A stretch of 30,216 nucleotides of DNA, from the IMG/VR virus record IMGVR_UViG_2537561604_000012; one strand, given 5' to 3'. Source of the stretch: a virus. Taxonomy: Duplodnaviria > Heunggongvirae > Uroviricota > Caudoviricetes. Each line of letters starts with the position of its first letter. Position 1 is the first letter of the stretch. The position numbers and the translations under genes are program-made. Shown here piece by piece: positions 297 through 9,002 of this stretch. The notes beneath the pieces were generated by a model, which saw only the letters and a program-made list of their open reading frames with translations, did no database searches and was not told the DNA's origin.

Positions 297-1337
297 CTAA
301 GCTGTCGCGACATTTTTGCGACATTTTAGGGGGTTAAGTCGCACAGCATCTTCAAGGTGGCTTGGGGCGAAGTGGGCATAACGCATTGTCATGGTTATGT
401 CAGCGTGGCCGAGAATTTTTTGCAAAACCAGAATGTTTCCGCCGTTCATCATAAAGTGGCTGGCAAATGTATGGCGCAGTACATGGGTAAGCTGGCCGGA
501 GGGGAGTTCAATGCCTGCGCGTTCCAGAGCAGAGCGGAAAGCGTTGTAGCAGGGCTTGGGGAACAGAGCGCCTTTTGTTTCAGGTAATTCGGACAGAAGT
601 TCATCATCAAGGGGAATTGTTCTGTTGCGCTTCCCTTTGGTTTTGACGAACGTGACTTTACCCCCGGCGATCTGGGAGCTTTTCAGCGTTGCCGCCTCAT
701 TCCACCTTGCGCCGGTAGCAAGGCAGATTTTGACAACTAATTCTAGGTACTTAACTTTGCTTCGTTTGCATTCCAGTAAAAGCCGATCAATTTCTTCGGT
801 AGTGAGGAAAGCCATTTCGGTTTCATCAGTACGATACTGTCTGACGTTTTCCAGTGGGTTGGGTGCTGACCATTCACCAATCCGTTTCAGTTCATTGAAC
901 ATCGCTAGAAAGTAAGCATGTTCAAGGTTCATAGTTTTCGGGGAAACCTTAGATACTCTGTTGGTGCGGGCATAATGCCCATCCAGCCTTTTAGCGCGGT
1001 AGGCTGTGAACAACTGGGCATTAAATTCTGTGGCCAGCGGGAATCCCATGCATTCCGCCGCCCAGGTCATAGCATCTTTACGCTTTTCGCCATTGCTCAA
1101 AGCTACGCCGTGGCGTTCATACCACATTGTTATCAGATCTATTAAAGTTCGCTTGTCCTTCCCTTCACCCAGCCACGGAGCTGCGTCTACTTTCTGAAGC
1201 GTATGGTTTTCGAATGCCAGGGCTTCCCCTTTCGTGGCAAATTTTTTACGTATACGCTTCCCGTTCTTGCCATTACTGCGGTTGACGGTGTAGAAGTCGG
1301 CGATCCATTCGCCTGTAGGAAGTTTACGAACGCTCAT
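297..1337 (-). CDS. int: Tyrosine site-specific integrase (phage integrase family)
   Basis: 346 aa ORF; C-terminal catalytic region with HVLRHTFAS (R..H-x-x-R box) and MTMRYAHF (catalytic Tyr); start ATG (1335-1337) directly follows repressor stop (TAAAATG), as in 186 cI-int operon. Confidence 0.9.
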   Translation of the reverse strand: MSVRKLPTGEWIADFYTVNRSNGKNGKRIRKKFATKGEALAFENHTLQKVDAAPWLGEGKDKRTLIDLITMWYERHGVALSNGEKRKDAMTWAAECMGFPLATEFNAQLFTAYRAKRLDGHYARTNRVSKVSPKTMNLEHAYFLAMFNELKRIGEWSAPNPLENVRQYRTDETEMAFLTTEEIDRLLLECKRSKVKYLELVVKICLATGARWNEAATLKSSQIAGGKVTFVKTKGKRNRTIPLDDELLSELPETKGALFPKPCYNAFRSALERAGIELPSGQLTHVLRHTFASHFMMNGGNILVLQKILGHADITMTMRYAHFAPSHLEDAVRLNPLKCRKNVATA

Positions 1338-1338
1338 T

Positions 1339-1920
1339 TTATTTTATCGTCAGAACAACGCGGCCTATGATTTTTATGTCGTCAATTCCGCAATCAAATG
1401 CCATACCAACACCGCTAACTCTGACTTTTCGTACCGGAATCCGTGTAAGAGTGCGGACGCTTGTTTTTCCTTCAACTTCAACCAACCAATCATCGTCATA
1501 AACTTCAGAATAAGACTGGTCAACAATGTACTGAATAAGGCCATCCAGAACACAAATCGGTTGTTGCGGTAAGGGCTTGCCAGGCAGGAAGATGACTTTA
1601 TCAAGCATAAGTGTGCCAGCGTCATAGAGTTGGCCATCAACAATCTTGCTGCGCGGCATTTTGAGTATGTCTAATTCATCATCATTAAATTTACGTCCCT
1701 GTCCTGTTGCCAGCCACTCCAGATTAGCGCCTGTTTCGGCTACGCATTTCACGACAATATCTGCCGGGAAAACTCCACGCTTGTAGCGTGAAGAAAGAGA
1801 ACTGGCTGCCATGTCCAGATGTTCCGCGAGCTGTAACTTCTGCGTAAATCCGTAAGCCTCGATCACCCTGTCAAGAATCGGTGTGCTATCTACGTTTAGG
1901 TCGATTTTAAATGTGCTCAT
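1339..1920 (-). CDS. cI: CI-type immunity repressor (186 CI-like, N-terminal HTH)
   Basis: ORF open 1339-1962 (first codon GTG); first ATG giving MSTFKIDLNVDSTPILDRVIEAYGF... is at 1918-1920 (193 aa). N-terminal HTH-like segment ending ...ETGANLEWLATGQG; located between int and divergent early operon. Start choice is by analogy to size of 186 CI; not verified. Confidence 0.7.
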   Translation of the reverse strand: MSTFKIDLNVDSTPILDRVIEAYGFTQKLQLAEHLDMAASSLSSRYKRGVFPADIVVKCVAETGANLEWLATGQGRKFNDDELDILKMPRSKIVDGQLYDAGTLMLDKVIFLPGKPLPQQPICVLDGLIQYIVDQSYSEVYDDDWLVEVEGKTSVRTLTRIPVRKVRVSGVGMAFDCGIDDIKIIGRVVLTIK

Positions 1921-1955
1921 AGCGAATCCATAAGTCTCGATTCGAGAAATTGCCA

Positions 1956-1984
1956 TTGACACTTCTCGAAACGCGAATTAATCT
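1956..1984 (+). promoter_or_regulatory. Candidate sigma70 early lytic promoter (pR-like): -35 TTGACA (1956-1961), 17-nt spacer, -10 TAATCT (1979-1984)
   Basis: Read directly: ttgacacttctcgaaacgcgaattaatct; flanked by inverted repeat TCGAGAA (1942-1948)/TTCTCGA (1963-1969) that could be a repressor operator; ~70 nt upstream of apl/cox-like start. Confidence 0.4.
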
Positions 1985-2307: not shown

Positions 2308-2811
2308 ATGTTTGATTACCAGACATCTAAACATGCGCACTTTGATGCGGCTTGCCGAGCATTTGCAACTGAGCACAATCTTGAAGATGTGGCCGCTGCT
2401 GTTGGTATGAGGCCACAGATCTTGCGCAACAAACTGAACCCAGCGCAACCGCACCGCCTAACCTGTGATGAGCTTTTGGCTATCACGGATTACACCGAAG
2501 ATGCACGTTTACTTGATGGGATGTTAGGTCAGATTAACTGCCTTCCATCCGTGCCGGTGAACAATGCCACTGAAGCCAACATGCAACTGTGTGCGCTTAG
2601 CGCCACTGCGTGTGTGGGAGCGATTGCTGGGGAAGCCGTATCAACTGGCCATATGACCGCCGCCCGCCGTGCTCAAATTTTGGATCGCGCCCGCGATGCA
2701 ATCCGTAGCTTATCCGTGCTGGCTTATACCGTTGAAAGCCGTATTCACTCTGCGCCGGTTCTGGCTGCTGCGGTGGATCTGGTCACAACCCACGCCACCG
2801 GCCTGATGTGA
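2308..2811 (+). CDS. CII-like early regulator (186 CII-sized, 167 aa)
   Basis: Second gene of early operon, RBS GGAGAGG upstream; size/position as 186 cII; N-terminal HTH-like segment. Function inferred from synteny. Confidence 0.5.
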   Translation: MFDYQTSKHAHFDAACRAFATEHNLEDVAAAVGMRPQILRNKLNPAQPHRLTCDELLAITDYTEDARLLDGMLGQINCLPSVPVNNATEANMQLCALSATACVGAIAGEAVSTGHMTAARRAQILDRARDAIRSLSVLAYTVESRIHSAPVLAAAVDLVTTHATGLM

Positions 2812-4453: not shown

Positions 4454-5303
4454 AACTCCGCTTAAATGGGTGGGCAGCAAAGCCCGCCTCATGCCTAAGC
4501 TGCGTCCGCACCTTCCAGAAGGTAAACGCCTGGTTGAACCGTTCGCAGGTTCCTGCGCCGTCATGATGAATACGGATTATGACGAGTATCTGATCGCAGA
4601 TGTGAATCCTGACCTGGTTAATCTTTATAAGGCGATGGCGTATCACACTAATGCGCTGCTGAATGAGCTGGAGATCCTGTTTTCTGCCGGTTCGTTAGGT
4701 GATGTAGAAAGCCGTGCCGTTTTCTATTACGCAGTGCGTGATGCTTTCAATCTTTCTGGTGGTAAGGCCGGTTCTGAATCTGTTGAAAATGCTGCGCGTT
4801 TCCTGTACCTGAACCGGCACTGCTTCAATGGTCTGTGTCGGTATAACCGTCGAGGCCAGTTCAACGTCCCGTTCGGTAAGTACAAAAAGCCTTATTTCCC
4901 CGCTGATGAAATCCGCGCCTTTGCTGAAAAAGCAAAACGCGCAACGTTCATTACTGCCCACTATTCAGAAACGCTTGATTTGGTTCGGGGCGGGAGTGAC
5001 GTTGTTTACTGTGATCCGCCTTATCTGACTGATGCCGACAATTTCACCGCTTACCATGAGCGCGGTTTTTCGCATATGGATCAGGGGCGGCTGGCGCGTA
5101 AACTGCGCCGTCTGGCGGAACGTGGGATTCCCGTTGTCGCGTCAAACAGCGATCTGGAAATGGTGCATTACCTGTATGCAGGGTTTGACGCCGTAAAGGT
5201 TAATGCGCCGCGTAGTGTCGGTGCGGCAGCTGCAAGCCCGAAAACGGCGGCAGAGCTGATTCTTAAATGGCCTTTACCGGCGACTTCTGAGGCCAGCGCA
5301 TGA
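4443..5303 (+). CDS. dam: DNA N6-adenine methyltransferase (Dam/D12 class)
   Basis: ATG 4443 with GGAGG 4433-4437; motifs PFAGSCAV (SAM-binding motif I) and DPPY (catalytic motif IV), [10 protein letters not shown]-terminal motif typical of Dam family. Confidence 0.85.
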
Positions 5304-7321
5304 CGCTGGCAATAAACGAACAATGCTATGCCGTTGATGCCTGGAGGCGGGAAACTTTCGCACCAGGCACACCGGCAGACGCGACTATCACAGAACGCCG
5401 CCTGTGGGCTGTAAACCCGCAGGATTATGAATGGCGATCCCGGTACCTGCATGAGATACCCGACTGGTTAGCCGGGTATTTTGGCCGTCGCTATGAAAAG
5501 CTTTTTTCTGGCCGTGACGGGCGTCGCCGTGCCAATACATTCCTGCGCAAAACAATCGGTGAGAATGTATTGCCACGTCTGCGCAAAGTGGCTGCGCGTT
5601 ACTCGCTGGCCGCTGATGCTGCTGATCTTCCTTTTGGTAAGTCGCTGGAGCGCTTGCCGTCACTAGACCGTCCTGATCTTAAAAAACTGGCTGGCCAGGT
5701 ATCTGGCTGGATTTCCCAGTCACTTTATGACTTCACCGAACAGTTTGATTCCGGCACTGACGACGCCAGAGAGCTGCATCGCCGCACTCTGGAATCTTAC
5801 CGCCATCTTTGTGCCTGTTGCCTGATGCTGAATAACCAGCCGCCGTACTGGACTGAACATGAGGCCAATGAAGGTCAACTGGAAATGCGTAAGGCGGAAT
5901 CCGGGATACTGCGCATGATGGCGCCGGAATGGTGGTACCTGCGTCTTAAACGTGCGCGTGATACGCAGCGCGAGCACATGGCCATTGCGGTGGGACAGGT
6001 GCAAAAAGCGGCCAGCGCTTATGTATCCCGCAAAACACTGGGTGAATGGATAGACCAGAAAAAGCGGAATCTGGAGTTCTTTAAAAAGTTTGATCTGCTG
6101 AATGATGAGGGGCTGCGCATTGCACTGGACAGCATGGTGCACCGCAGCGTTGCAAATCCGGCGATCCGTCGATGTGAACTAATGGTAAGAATGCGAGGGT
6201 TTGAAGATATGGCCAATGAAGAAGGGCTGGCCGGTGAGTTTTACACTATCACCGCGCCATCACGTTTCCATGCGGTTCACAGCAAAGGGGGCTTTGTATC
6301 GCAATGGGATGGAAGTACGCCGCAGGATACCCAGCGCTATTTATGCGGCGTATGGGCAAAAGCGCGTGCAGCGATCTCGCGTGCTGGTATCCATGTATTT
6401 GGGTTTCGGGTTGTTGAGCCTCACCATGACGGGACACCGCACTGGCATATGTTGCTTTTTATGCGTCCGCAGGACGTGGACACGGTACGCGATATTCTTT
6501 GTTATCACGCCAGAATTACCGATTCTGAAGAACTGCAATCTGAAAAGGCGCTGAAGGCGCGTTTTCATGTTGAAGCTATCGATCCCGCCAAAGGTTCGGC
6601 CACGGGCTACATCGCGAAATACATTTCAAAAAATATTGATGGTTTTGCGCTGGATGGTGAGCAGGACGAAGAAACCGGCGAAAACCTGCGTGATATGGCT
6701 AAGTCCGTTTCCGCGTGGGCTTCACGCTGGCGTATTCGCCAGTTTCAGCAGATTGGTGGTGCGCCGGTAACCGTCTGGCGTGAGCTGCGTCGGTTGCGGG
6801 ATCAGGTACTGACAGATCGCAGAATGGATGCGGTTCTGGCCGCTGCTGATGTCGGGGACTGGGCTGCATATACCCAGGCGCAGGGAGGTGCACTGGTTGC
6901 CCGCCGTGATCTGGTTGTTCGTCTGGCCTATGAAATTACGGAACAGGGCAACGAATACGCGGAGGACGTGCAGCGCGTACAGGGTGTTTATTCTCCTTTG
7001 ATTCCTGATTCAGAAGTTTGCACCCGTCTGGTTAAGTGGCAAAAGGTTGCGAAGTTGGCCGAAGCGCCAGCGGAGGCGGGTTTTTCTGGCGGCAACGCCG
7101 CCCCTTGGAGTTCTGTCAATAACTGTACGGAGGGGGGAACCCGCAGACGGTTAAAACTGGAATTACGCAGTCGGGGTTTTGAGGGTTCCGATGAAGAAAT
7201 AGCCATTCTCCTGCGGGGTAGTGGTTTGATATTTGGTCAGGGGGCACTGATTTACCGCAATGGGCGGTTGAAGGAAACACGAAACGAACCATTGCAGGAG
7301 CTTTGGCCGGGGTGGTTATAG
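5300..7321 (+). CDS. A: Rolling-circle replication initiator endonuclease gpA (P2 A / 186 A family)
   Basis: 673 aa; HUH-type motif PHWHMLLF and active-site tyrosine motif TGYIAKYISK; ATGA overlap with dam stop; position at end of early operon. Confidence 0.9.
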   Translation: MTLAINEQCYAVDAWRRETFAPGTPADATITERRLWAVNPQDYEWRSRYLHEIPDWLAGYFGRRYEKLFSGRDGRRRANTFLRKTIGENVLPRLRKVAARYSLAADAADLPFGKSLERLPSLDRPDLKKLAGQVSGWISQSLYDFTEQFDSGTDDARELHRRTLESYRHLCACCLMLNNQPPYWTEHEANEGQLEMRKAESGILRMMAPEWWYLRLKRARDTQREHMAIAVGQVQKAASAYVSRKTLGEWIDQKKRNLEFFKKFDLLNDEGLRIALDSMVHRSVANPAIRRCELMVRMRGFEDMANEEGLAGEFYTITAPSRFHAVHSKGGFVSQWDGSTPQDTQRYLCGVWAKARAAISRAGIHVFGFRVVEPHHDGTPHWHMLLFMRPQDVDTVRDILCYHARITDSEELQSEKALKARFHVEAIDPAKGSATGYIAKYISKNIDGFALDGEQDEETGENLRDMAKSVSAWASRWRIRQFQQIGGAPVTVWRELRRLRDQVLTDRRMDAVLAAADVGDWAAYTQAQGGALVARRDLVVRLAYEITEQGNEYAEDVQRVQGVYSPLIPDSEVCTRLVKWQKVAKLAEAPAEAGFSGGNAAPWSSVNNCTEGGTRRRLKLELRSRGFEGSDEEIAILLRGSGLIFGQGALIYRNGRLKETRNEPLQELWPGWL

Positions 7322-7398
7322 GTGTGCATGTGTGTGTAACACATTCATTTGTCAGTAGATGGCAGGAAATTAAATTTCACAATTCGTGCTTTAAGGTG

Positions 7399-7418
7399 TA
7401 CTGTATGTATATCCAGTT
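7399..7418 (+). promoter_or_regulatory. LexA-box-like SOS operator TACTGTATGTATATCCAGTT (CTGT-N8-CCAG) upstream of small ORF
   Basis: Matches LexA consensus TACTGT-(AT)4-ACAGTA at left half-site perfectly and right half with one core mismatch (CCAG vs ACAG); AT-rich centre; 22 nt upstream of ATG 7441. Confidence 0.5.
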
Positions 7419-7440
7419 ATTTATTGCTTGTGGGGGCTAA

Positions 7441-7647
7441 ATGGATCTTTTGGAGGCGTCGGCACAGCTGGAACGCATTGAGTTATTGGCCAAAATTGCC
7501 CATGTTTACGAAAGTAACCAGAGAGAAAAAACAATCGCTTTGGCCTGGATTGGAGAGCTTGCGGGAGAGGTTCGCGAAATGGTTAAAAAGGAAGGGCAAC
7601 GCCCCCAGAATGGGGGCATTTCAGGCGGCGGGAGTCGCTTTCAGTAG
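7441..7647 (+). CDS. Small hypothetical protein (68 aa) downstream of SOS-box-like site; possible Tum-type antirepressor analogue
   Basis: ATG 7441 preceded by GGGGG; function inferred only from position (186 has LexA-controlled tum after gene A). 3' end overlaps convergent ogr-like gene and hairpin 7601-7617. Confidence 0.4.
   Translation: MDLLEASAQLERIELLAKIAHVYESNQREKTIALAWIGELAGEVREMVKKEGQRPQNGGISGGGSRFQ
7601..7617 (-). terminator. GC-rich hairpin GCCCCCA-gaa-TGGGGGC just downstream of ogr-like stop; candidate terminator of P-Q-ogr transcript
   Basis: 7-bp perfect stem; on minus strand followed within ~12 nt by TTTTT (plus 7584-7588 aaaaa). U-tract not adjacent so moderate. Confidence 0.35.
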
Positions 7648-7890
7648 GTCTAATGCCATCTGGCGCTGATCGGGTGAAAGTGCATTCAGTATTTTTTGCA
7701 CCATCGCATCACCCGCTTTAGCGCTGGGGCTGAGAGTGTGGGAGAACGTCAGATTCATAACAAACGTGTGGCCACACTCAACATCTGAACAGGCGCAGTA
7801 AATATCCGCAATTTGCCGGTGCTTCCTGTTCGTTTTACGAATAACAGCCTTTGAGCCGCATTCCGGGCATTCGATTTTCAGAACTCGCAT
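7621..7890 (-). CDS. ogr: Ogr/Delta-family zinc-finger late-gene transcriptional activator
   Basis: From ATG 7888-7890 (RBS GGAG 8 nt upstream): MRVLKIECPECGS...IYCACSDVECGHTF gives C-x2-C-x20-C-x-C-x4-C with Y-x-C...C-x-x-TF, as in P2 Ogr (C-x2-C-x22-C-x4-C ... ATF). Alternative upstream ATG 7942-7944 overlaps Q stop (ATGA). Confidence 0.75.
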   Translation of the reverse strand: MRVLKIECPECGSKAVIRKTNRKHRQIADIYCACSDVECGHTFVMNLTFSHTLSPSAKAGDAMVQKILNALSPDQRQMALDLLKATPAA

Positions 7891-7940: not shown

Positions 7941-9002
7941 TCATGCCGCACCCTTATCCGTTGATTCTGTGTAACTTAAATCAAAGTTAAGGTGTAGCCT
8001 TTCCGGTATTTCGGGATCATTGTTAACGGCCAGCATAAAACGGCGCTGGATGGGGGCAATTTCGCTTTTCTTGTAAATGCGTTCAGCCTTTTCAACATCC
8101 CCCAGTCCGGCAGTGTTCTGCGGGACAATACCGGCGAGGCCAGCAGGGAAACGGTGAGCGTTCAGAATGTCCTGGGCGCTGATGTTCTTGATGTTGGCAA
8201 ATTCATCCTTTGCGGAAATATCCCCCATTTCAATGAATTTGATGGCGTCGCCGTCTCCACCGGGAATGTTTACAAGGATGGTGGAGAAGTTACCGATCCC
8301 TTTGCTGTCACGCAGCTGCTGTTCAATTTCTTCCTCCATTTCGTCCGTCATGCTGGGATCGCGGGTATAAAGAATACCGCCTGTGTGCGCACCATTGTGG
8401 TAATAGCGGCGTCGGAAAATGACCGCTTCACTGTTAAGTAACGCGGAATGCACACCGCCTATGTAGTCCGGCAGCCCGTAGATATGCTGTTGCGGGTCAT
8501 ACATTTTGATGAAGATAATATCTTCTTCTGGCCATACCTGCGGTTCCCCTTCCTGTAACACCACGTAGTCACCAGGCTTATCCAGGGCGTTATCTCTGAC
8601 TTTGCGGCGGCGAATATACAGACCGGGCAAGGGTTCAAGTGCGATCACGTCACCCCAGCCGTTACGAATTTTGGCAATCGCAATATCCCCAAAGGTTATA
8701 TAGTCAAACGCTGCCGCTTCCAGCTGGTCGTGAATAAGCCCGCCCCCCTGGTAGTCTGAAACAATCATGTTTTTACGGGCGTGAATGATGCCGCCGTGCT
8801 GACCGTTAAGATTAATCAGTTGCGCGAGTGCCAGCCGGTCAATCGGCTGGGTGAAGTGATCGGCGGCATTGTCGTACCAGATATCACGGTAATCTGTGCC
8901 GGTAGTCAGAACTGGTTCAGGTTTGCCGAATGTGATAATGCTCATCTTTTTTGATTTGTCGCCGCGCTGGTCGCGCTTAACAAAGCGTTTCTTTTTACTC
9001 AT
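7941..9002 (-). CDS. Q: Portal (capsid portal vertex) protein, P2 gpQ-like
   Basis: 353 aa; immediately downstream of and overlapping (ATGA) the large terminase gene; size matches P2 Q (~344 aa). Confidence 0.8.
   Translation of the reverse strand: MSKKKRFVKRDQRGDKSKKMSIITFGKPEPVLTTGTDYRDIWYDNAADHFTQPIDRLALAQLINLNGQHGGIIHARKNMIVSDYQGGGLIHDQLEAAAFDYITFGDIAIAKIRNGWGDVIALEPLPGLYIRRRKVRDNALDKPGDYVVLQEGEPQVWPEEDIIFIKMYDPQQHIYGLPDYIGGVHSALLNSEAVIFRRRYYHNGAHTGGILYTRDPSMTDEMEEEIEQQLRDSKGIGNFSTILVNIPGGDGDAIKFIEMGDISAKDEFANIKNISAQDILNAHRFPAGLAGIVPQNTAGLGDVEKAERIYKKSEIAPIQRRFMLAVNNDPEIPERLHLNFDLSYTESTDKGAA

Follow-up and report, generated by a model that had tools for sequence, protein, structure and literature searches.

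Tum of phage 186 is a LexA-controlled antirepressor of the CI immunity repressor (PMC3121763, PMC7708051), and was described by Lemire et al. (2011) as an antirepressor fused to DinI (PMC3121763). In PSP3 and Fels-2 the two halves of Tum are found as separate genes, the antirepressor activity of PSP3 resides in the upstream gene, and this activity does not need the DinI-like domain (PMC3121763). Repressors of the 186 CI type do not undergo RecA-dependent cleavage, and an antirepressor is required for SOS induction (PMC7708051). A system similar to the locus described here is found in DuoHS, also a P2-like E. coli prophage (strain HS), in which a LexA-controlled tum is required for induction by mitomycin C, and in which either deletion of tum or a non-cleavable lexA (Ind-) abolishes induction (PMC12055606). 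The Gifsy proteins GfoA and GftA and the N15 protein AntC are likewise LexA-repressed small antirepressors that bind and inactivate a non-cleavable immunity repressor (PMC3121763). These proteins and their repressors are from unrelated families and other genomic contexts, and the likeness to the present locus is in mechanism only.

The DNA analyzed here, referred to as the window, is a stretch of 30,216 nucleotides (IMG/VR record IMGVR_UViG_2537561604_000012), and belongs to a P2/186-like phage or prophage of the ESSI-2/Quadragintavirus-like type from E. coli. The nearest deposited phages were the E. coli 'ESSI2_ev' phages of the genus Quadragintavirus, which were 93-95% identical to the window where the sequences aligned, and Salmonella phage S.Kent 1-2-1, which was 85% identical. 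Among 5,426 complete genomes of E. coli, 25 contained the region, always on the chromosome and in some strains at 99% identity or more; for many of the E. coli genome matches listed, ogr was the only annotated feature under the match. Identity of the window with the DuoHS prophage was considered and rejected, as E. coli HS was absent from the 25 genomes listed with the region.

The features of the window are given in Table 1. The region that follows replication gene A is likely to be an SOS induction module, in which a LexA-repressed, stand-alone Tum-type antirepressor would inactivate CI after DNA damage. Related loci were fetched from IMG/VR and GTDB, 71 with ORFs of the window type and 80 with ORFs of the type found in phage ESSI2_ev040. 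There were 148 loci with enough upstream sequence, and a LexA box was scored as present at 18 bits or more.

Table 1. Features of the window that bear on the proposed induction module
Feature	Position	Strand	Basis
Integrase	297-1337	-	
186-type CI immunity repressor, proposed target of the 68-aa protein	1339-1962	-	43% identical to 186 CI
Apl/Cox-like gene	between repressor and CII-like gene		
CII-like gene	2308-2811		
DNA methyltransferase	between CII-like gene and gene A		
Replication gene A	5300-7321	+	
-35 hexamer TTCACA of p95-like promoter	7376-7381	+	identical to annotated 186 p95 -35
-10 hexamer TACTGT, left arm of LexA box	7399-7404	+	same as annotated 186 p95 -10
LexA (SOS) box TACTGTATGTATATCCAGTT	7399-7418	.	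PWM 26.9 bits, kept in relatives
Shine-Dalgarno GGGGG	7432-7436	+	read from sequence; 4 nt before ATG
Short Tum-like ORF, 68 aa, proposed antirepressor	7441-7647	+	phrog_698, Tum N-terminal match, dN/dS
GC-rich hairpin just past ogr-like stop codon	7598-7620	-	fold -19.5 kcal/mol, z -2.1
Ogr/Delta-like late-gene activator gene	7621-7890	-	Pfam Ogr_Delta E 9e-20, phrog_603
Portal Q	7941-9002	-	
Terminase P	after portal Q in listed gene order	-	

As in the p95-tum locus of 186, the 68-aa ORF was located downstream of gene A and is transcribed rightward. The promoter has the TTCACA -35 and the TACTGT -10 of p95, an annotated and experimentally studied promoter, and a 20-bp LexA box over the -10. 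The 186 box (TACTGTATGTTTATACAGTA) also starts at the -10, with 3 differences from the window box in 20 positions. The N-terminal ~40 residues of Tum were homologous to the ORF product, and the partner is a 186-type CI with the same two Pfam domains. The original prediction was that of a possible Tum-type induction module placed as in 186, and it is supported by the position after gene A, the p95-like layout, the CI type and the presence of the box in 145 of the 148 related loci. Unlike 186 Tum, which has 146 aa, the window protein has 68 aa and is without the DinI-like C-terminal half; the window also has no orf97 downstream, where there is instead an overlapping convergent ogr-like gene, and no counterpart to the annotated nested in-frame Tum products. 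In PSP3, as in the window, a short stand-alone protein (TumA, 60 aa) is encoded after gene A behind a LexA box (TACTGTATAAATATACAGTA). The annotation of PSP3 tumA reads 'UV induction of prophage', and the TumA family, phrog_1993, was matched by the window ORF (E = 8e-4). However, PSP3 has a separate DinI-like gene, tumB, directly downstream of tumA, and no such gene was found in the window or in the 148 surveyed relatives.

Analysis of 40 distinct 68-codon alleles showed that the ORF is a real gene under purifying selection. The conserved core consisted of codons 1-48 (positions 7441-7584), with a dN/dS of 0.10, and the tail, codons 49-68, was poorly constrained (0.80). In the two shifted frames over the ORF dN/dS was 1.07 and 1.99, and with such values of ~1 to 2 the alternative frames, a 106-aa ORF at 7349-7669 and minus-strand ORFs, were rejected. 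The protein matched phrog_698 over its full length (residues 1-61 on profile positions 2-62 of 63, E = 2e-22) and, in addition to phrog_1993, phrog_8554 (E = 3.9e-11). A word-index search found 66 homologous proteins, of which the named ones were from Escherichia, Salmonella, Citrobacter, Pluralibacter, Raoultella, and Cronobacter. In a search of the whole library, homologs of 36-112 aa fell into 57 representative clusters. Searches of Pfam and NCBIfam with the 68-aa ORF gave no match, and a PDB profile search gave nothing at E values up to 1. The AF2 model was a two-helix hairpin (residues 3-21 and 27-53) with a disordered tail (mean pLDDT 78), and a Foldseek comparison of this model with the PDB returned generic helical hairpins only, all with E > 0.9, and was uninformative.

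BLASTP aligned residues 4-41 of the ORF with residues 5-42 of 186 Tum (32% identity, E = 1e-5), and hhalign with a 15-sequence profile aligned positions 4-42 with Tum 5-43 (probability 93%, E = 2.6e-7). The DinI domain of Tum was placed at residues 87-145 by Pfam, so the match to the ORF falls in the half of Tum that is not DinI. Tum itself matched phrog_1993 (E = 1e-22), phrog_8554 (E = 1.4e-11), and phrog_698 (E = 2.4e-5), and the 68-aa ORF matched all three of these Tum-linked families. Among their members are PSP3 TumA, in phrog_1993, and, in phrog_8554, a Yersinia phage protein of 60 aa with the annotation 'tum protein'. The direct similarity of the window ORF to PSP3 TumA was weak (hhalign probability 19.5%). 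When PSP3 TumB and the DinI half of Tum were used as tblastn queries, no credible DinI-like sequence was found in the window (best E = 0.63), and no DinI-like partner was found in the 148 related loci. On these alignments, the 68-aa ORF is a stand-alone protein of the Tum N-terminal domain without the DinI-like half, and it is short because that C-terminal half of Tum is missing. The original prediction was correct that the ORF is much shorter than Tum. It had also judged the two to be unrelated by eye, which the BLASTP, hhalign and PHROG matches contradict, and had suggested a distinct SOS-controlled effector, a suggestion at odds with the N-terminal homology to Tum.

The repressor encoded in the window was similar to 186 CI along with its domains: the two proteins aligned with an E value of 3e-49, and the window CI matched the Pfam families Phage_CI_repr (E = 6e-23) and Phage_CI_C (E = 8e-31). 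A Peptidase_S24 (self-cleavage) domain was not found in it by the Pfam search. Because this CI is of the 186 type and has no S24 self-cleavage domain, an antirepressor would be needed for SOS induction.

Comparison of the window with ESSI2_ev040 showed protein identities of 97% for gene A and 96% for CII, and of only 41% for CI and 42% for the small ORF; the diverged core of the ORF was flanked by a conserved promoter and box and by a conserved 3' end. When the ORF and CI proteins were each clustered at 55% identity, ORF class 0 (the window type) was found with CI class 0 in 50 of 50 distinct pairs, and ORF class 1 with a CI of another class in 63 of 64, though the loci behind these counts are not independent events. 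Among loci with a gene A at least 90% identical to that of the window, there were 26 with ORF class 0 and CI class 0, 13 with ORF class 1 and a non-0 CI, and none that were mixed. The two genes are 5.5 kb apart. In other words, the ORF and CI classes swap jointly on a constant backbone, as expected of interacting partners. Two loci (L092 and L093) broke this rule, and class 1 ORFs were found with several mutually divergent CI classes. Fine covariation of the ORF with CI inside class 0 was looked for as well and set aside as weak (Mantel r 0.24; 0.19 for the NTD and 0.17 for the CTD). Within this class the ORF tracked gene A (Spearman 0.74) rather than CI (0.22), and identical ORFs were found beside CIs just 64-79% identical to that of the window. 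Given the weak fine covariation, the divergent class 1 CIs and the two exceptional loci, the co-segregation could partly reflect a few linked recombination events instead of partner specificity.

In the proposed mechanism, host LexA bound at 7399-7418 in the lysogen would cover the -10 and the likely start site of the p95-type promoter, predicted near position 7411, and the 68-aa gene would be silent. After DNA damage, activated RecA would lead to self-cleavage of LexA, the promoter would fire, and the 68-aa protein would be made. Its two-helix core (residues 1 to ~48, equivalent to the N-terminal part of 186 Tum) would bind CI and block operator binding, and inactivation of CI would derepress the early lytic promoter and induce the prophage. 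The module would be antirepressor-only, with no DinI-like domain either fused or nearby, unlike 186 Tum. We infer CI binding by the 68-aa protein, and the prophage induction that would follow, by analogy with 186, PSP3, and DuoHS (PMC3121763, PMC7708051, PMC12055606).

A LexA-regulated gene in this position could also be an accessory gene for a different SOS effector (for example, an inhibitor of division, a toxin, or a modulator of RecA or the SOS response) and not for a CI antirepressor, in which case induction would depend on something else. All three PHROG families are listed as of unknown function, and every name given to the 66 homologs at NCBI was 'hypothetical protein', which would leave room for such a role, as would the uninformative helical hairpin fold, the lack of fine covariation with CI inside class 0, and a similarity to Tum that covers just ~39 residues at 31-32% identity. 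This alternative is nevertheless improbable, since the part of Tum that is matched is precisely the N-terminal part and not the DinI half, and since the promoter, the position and the CI type are all as in 186. Also against it are the joint swapping of ORF and CI classes on a backbone that is 94-97% identical, the absence of a self-cleavage domain from the window CI, and the absence of any other LexA box or candidate antirepressor from the window.

The 68-aa ORF and the ogr-like gene, which is downstream of portal Q, are arranged tail-to-tail with an overlap of 27 nt; the start of the ogr-like gene was taken at the Met of MRVLK, after the ev040 annotation. The hairpin past the ogr-like stop codon is followed within a few nt by a T-run on the minus strand, is also present in ev040 and S.Kent, and sits within tum-like codons 53-60, in the weakly constrained tail of the ORF. 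From its sequence it is probably the terminator of the ogr-like gene. On the plus strand no clear terminator was found after the ORF, the hairpin being without a T tract in that direction. SOS transcripts may read antisense into ogr, as a second role. In a stronger version of this idea, the SOS promoter would chiefly drive antisense or convergent transcription into ogr and the portal-terminase (Q-P) operon, and the ORF would be secondary. Such a role would fit the tail-to-tail overlap, the lack of a T-tract terminator, the presence of a convergent ogr next to the ORF in 76 of the 148 related loci, and the almost neutral ORF tail (dN/dS 0.8), but codons 1-48 are under strong purifying selection, and 186, PSP3 and 72 of the 148 loci have the box, promoter and ORF but no convergent ogr. 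Silencing of the late activator during induction would moreover be counter-productive, and a chiefly antisense role is very unlikely.

The SOS induction module could be extended to a reading in which the ~48-residue hairpin would be a minimal cassette that confers specificity for 186-type CI and can be exchanged, with discrete classes of the two proteins matched and co-swapped by recombination, and in which the SOS transcript additionally runs antisense into ogr and couples the timing of induction to late control. We regard this extended reading as unlikely.

The promoter of the proposed module has a -35/-10 spacer of 17 nt, while that of 186 p95 has 18 nt. The TACTGT -10 is a poor sigma-70 match that fell below the threshold of a generic sigma-70 scan, and for this reason the assignment of a p95-like promoter rests on homology to 186 and on conservation. 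Among 92 distinct upstream contexts of relatives, information content peaked at the -35 hexamer and at both LexA half-sites; the -35 was TTCACA or TTTACA at a 17-nt spacing in 45 contexts and TTCAGC in 35. The end of the LexA box is 22 nt from the ATG of the ORF. The Shine-Dalgarno sequence has the same 4-nt spacing to the ATG as in 186 tum, and its position matches the GGAGG of 186 tum and relatives. A second sigma-70-like element, TTGTCA-16-TAAATT, was found at 7349-7376 and overlaps the -35 hexamer of the p95-like promoter. Its TTGTCA was kept in ev040 and S.Kent. As an alternative promoter this element was set aside and is considered a minor possibility only, as its TAAATT -10 was not conserved in S.Kent and the element was absent from 186.

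The LexA box TACTGTATGTATATCCAGTT has a single mismatch to CTGT-N8-ACAG, in the right half-site (CCAG), and CTG-N10-CAG is intact. CCAG is found in several genuine E. coli SOS boxes, such as those of recN, uvrB, dinI, and lexA. Sites were scored with a 20-nt LexA PWM made from 27 E. coli LexA sites, and the scores are approximate. By this PWM, TACTGTATGTATATCCAGTT was the top site of the 30-kb window, and the runner-up scored 11.3 bits. Among 200 random windows generated with a first-order Markov model, the highest score was 18.9 bits, and none reached that of TACTGTATGTATATCCAGTT. The best chromosomal boxes in a leave-one-out analysis, dinD (26.6 bits) and umuD (26.4 bits), were level with the window box, and the 186 p95 box scored 27.5 bits on the same approximate PWM. 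The heterology index of the window box was approximately 2.4. There were 19 occurrences in the window of the loose pattern CTGT-N8-ACAG with at most one mismatch, but the full 20-nt PWM sets TACTGTATGTATATCCAGTT apart from all other window sites, which points to a strong box rather than to a random occurrence. The probability that this sequence is an accidental AT-rich palindrome of the intergenic promoter region to which LexA does not bind is very small, even with its one departure from CTGT-N8-ACAG and the frequency of the generic pattern, because it scores 15 bits more than the next site and exceeds all of the random windows, is kept in 145 of 148 relatives though the spacer varies, and is near-identical to the p95 box. 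The sequence of the site suggests that LexA binds at 7399-7418 in vivo. The original prediction of a LexA-box match with one core mismatch, overlapping a -10-like region just before a 68-aa ORF with a strong ribosome binding site, therefore held in each part: CCAG was the sole deviation, the PWM score stood well apart from that of other sites, TACTGT lies inside the box, and the GGGGG is 4 nt upstream of the ATG.

The sole exact match to CTGT-N8-ACAG in the window (CTGTATTGCCGTACAG) was at 2018-2033, in the CI/Apl switch region. With a low full LexA PWM score (10.4 bits), it is probably not a LexA site, and might be part of the switch operators.

In the 145 related loci where the LexA box reached the 18-bit threshold, it ended 14-27 nt before the start codon. 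There were 45 box variants among the loci, in which CTGT/ACAG was kept and the differences were mostly in the spacer and flanks. One of the three exceptions (L020, IMGVR_UViG_2791354791_000011; 6136-7479) contained an ISL3-like insertion sequence at the exact center of the LexA box, with a 406-aa transposase and the ends GGGTCTTCCC and GGGAAGACCC, and with duplicate copies of the AT-rich 8-bp spacer ATGTATAT on either side. The insertion splits the LexA half-sites and leaves the ORF ~1.3 kb from the promoter, and the tum allele was otherwise 98.5% identical. Judging by this arrangement, the prophage is probably no longer SOS-inducible. In the other two loci without a strong box, the best sites scored -3.3 bits (L100) and 14.9 bits (L140, TACTGCATGTATAAACAGAA), and these boxes may have decayed or been rearranged.

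Two annotations in ESSI2_ev040 differed from the window. As deposited, the gp27 CDS (L001 3496-3756) has 86 aa, with a start that precedes both the -10 hexamer and the LexA box; given the alignment to the window and the position of the box, a GTG start and a 70-aa product (MQDLFLETIALQRI...) are more likely. The alignment of the ev040 CI (gp38, 165 aa) with that of the window began only at residue 62 of the latter, and the N-terminal helix-turn-helix region appears to have been left out of the ev040 annotation.

Stand-alone short forms of Tum have already been described (PSP3 TumA), and the proposed module in the window would be a reduced form of an induction module already known. These findings leave the established view of 186-type induction unchanged. 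What they add is a probable functional label for phrog_698, evidence for a DinI-less module consisting of the antirepressor only, the class-level pairing with CI, and an allele disrupted by an insertion sequence. The pairing provides a small, tractable system for the study of antirepressor-repressor specificity, and a probable function can be proposed for the small gene family phrog_698 and its relatives phrog_8554 and phrog_1993. These data predict that the P2/186-like prophages of this group in E. coli, Salmonella, and Citrobacter would be inducible by DNA damage, including that caused by antibiotics that trigger the SOS response.
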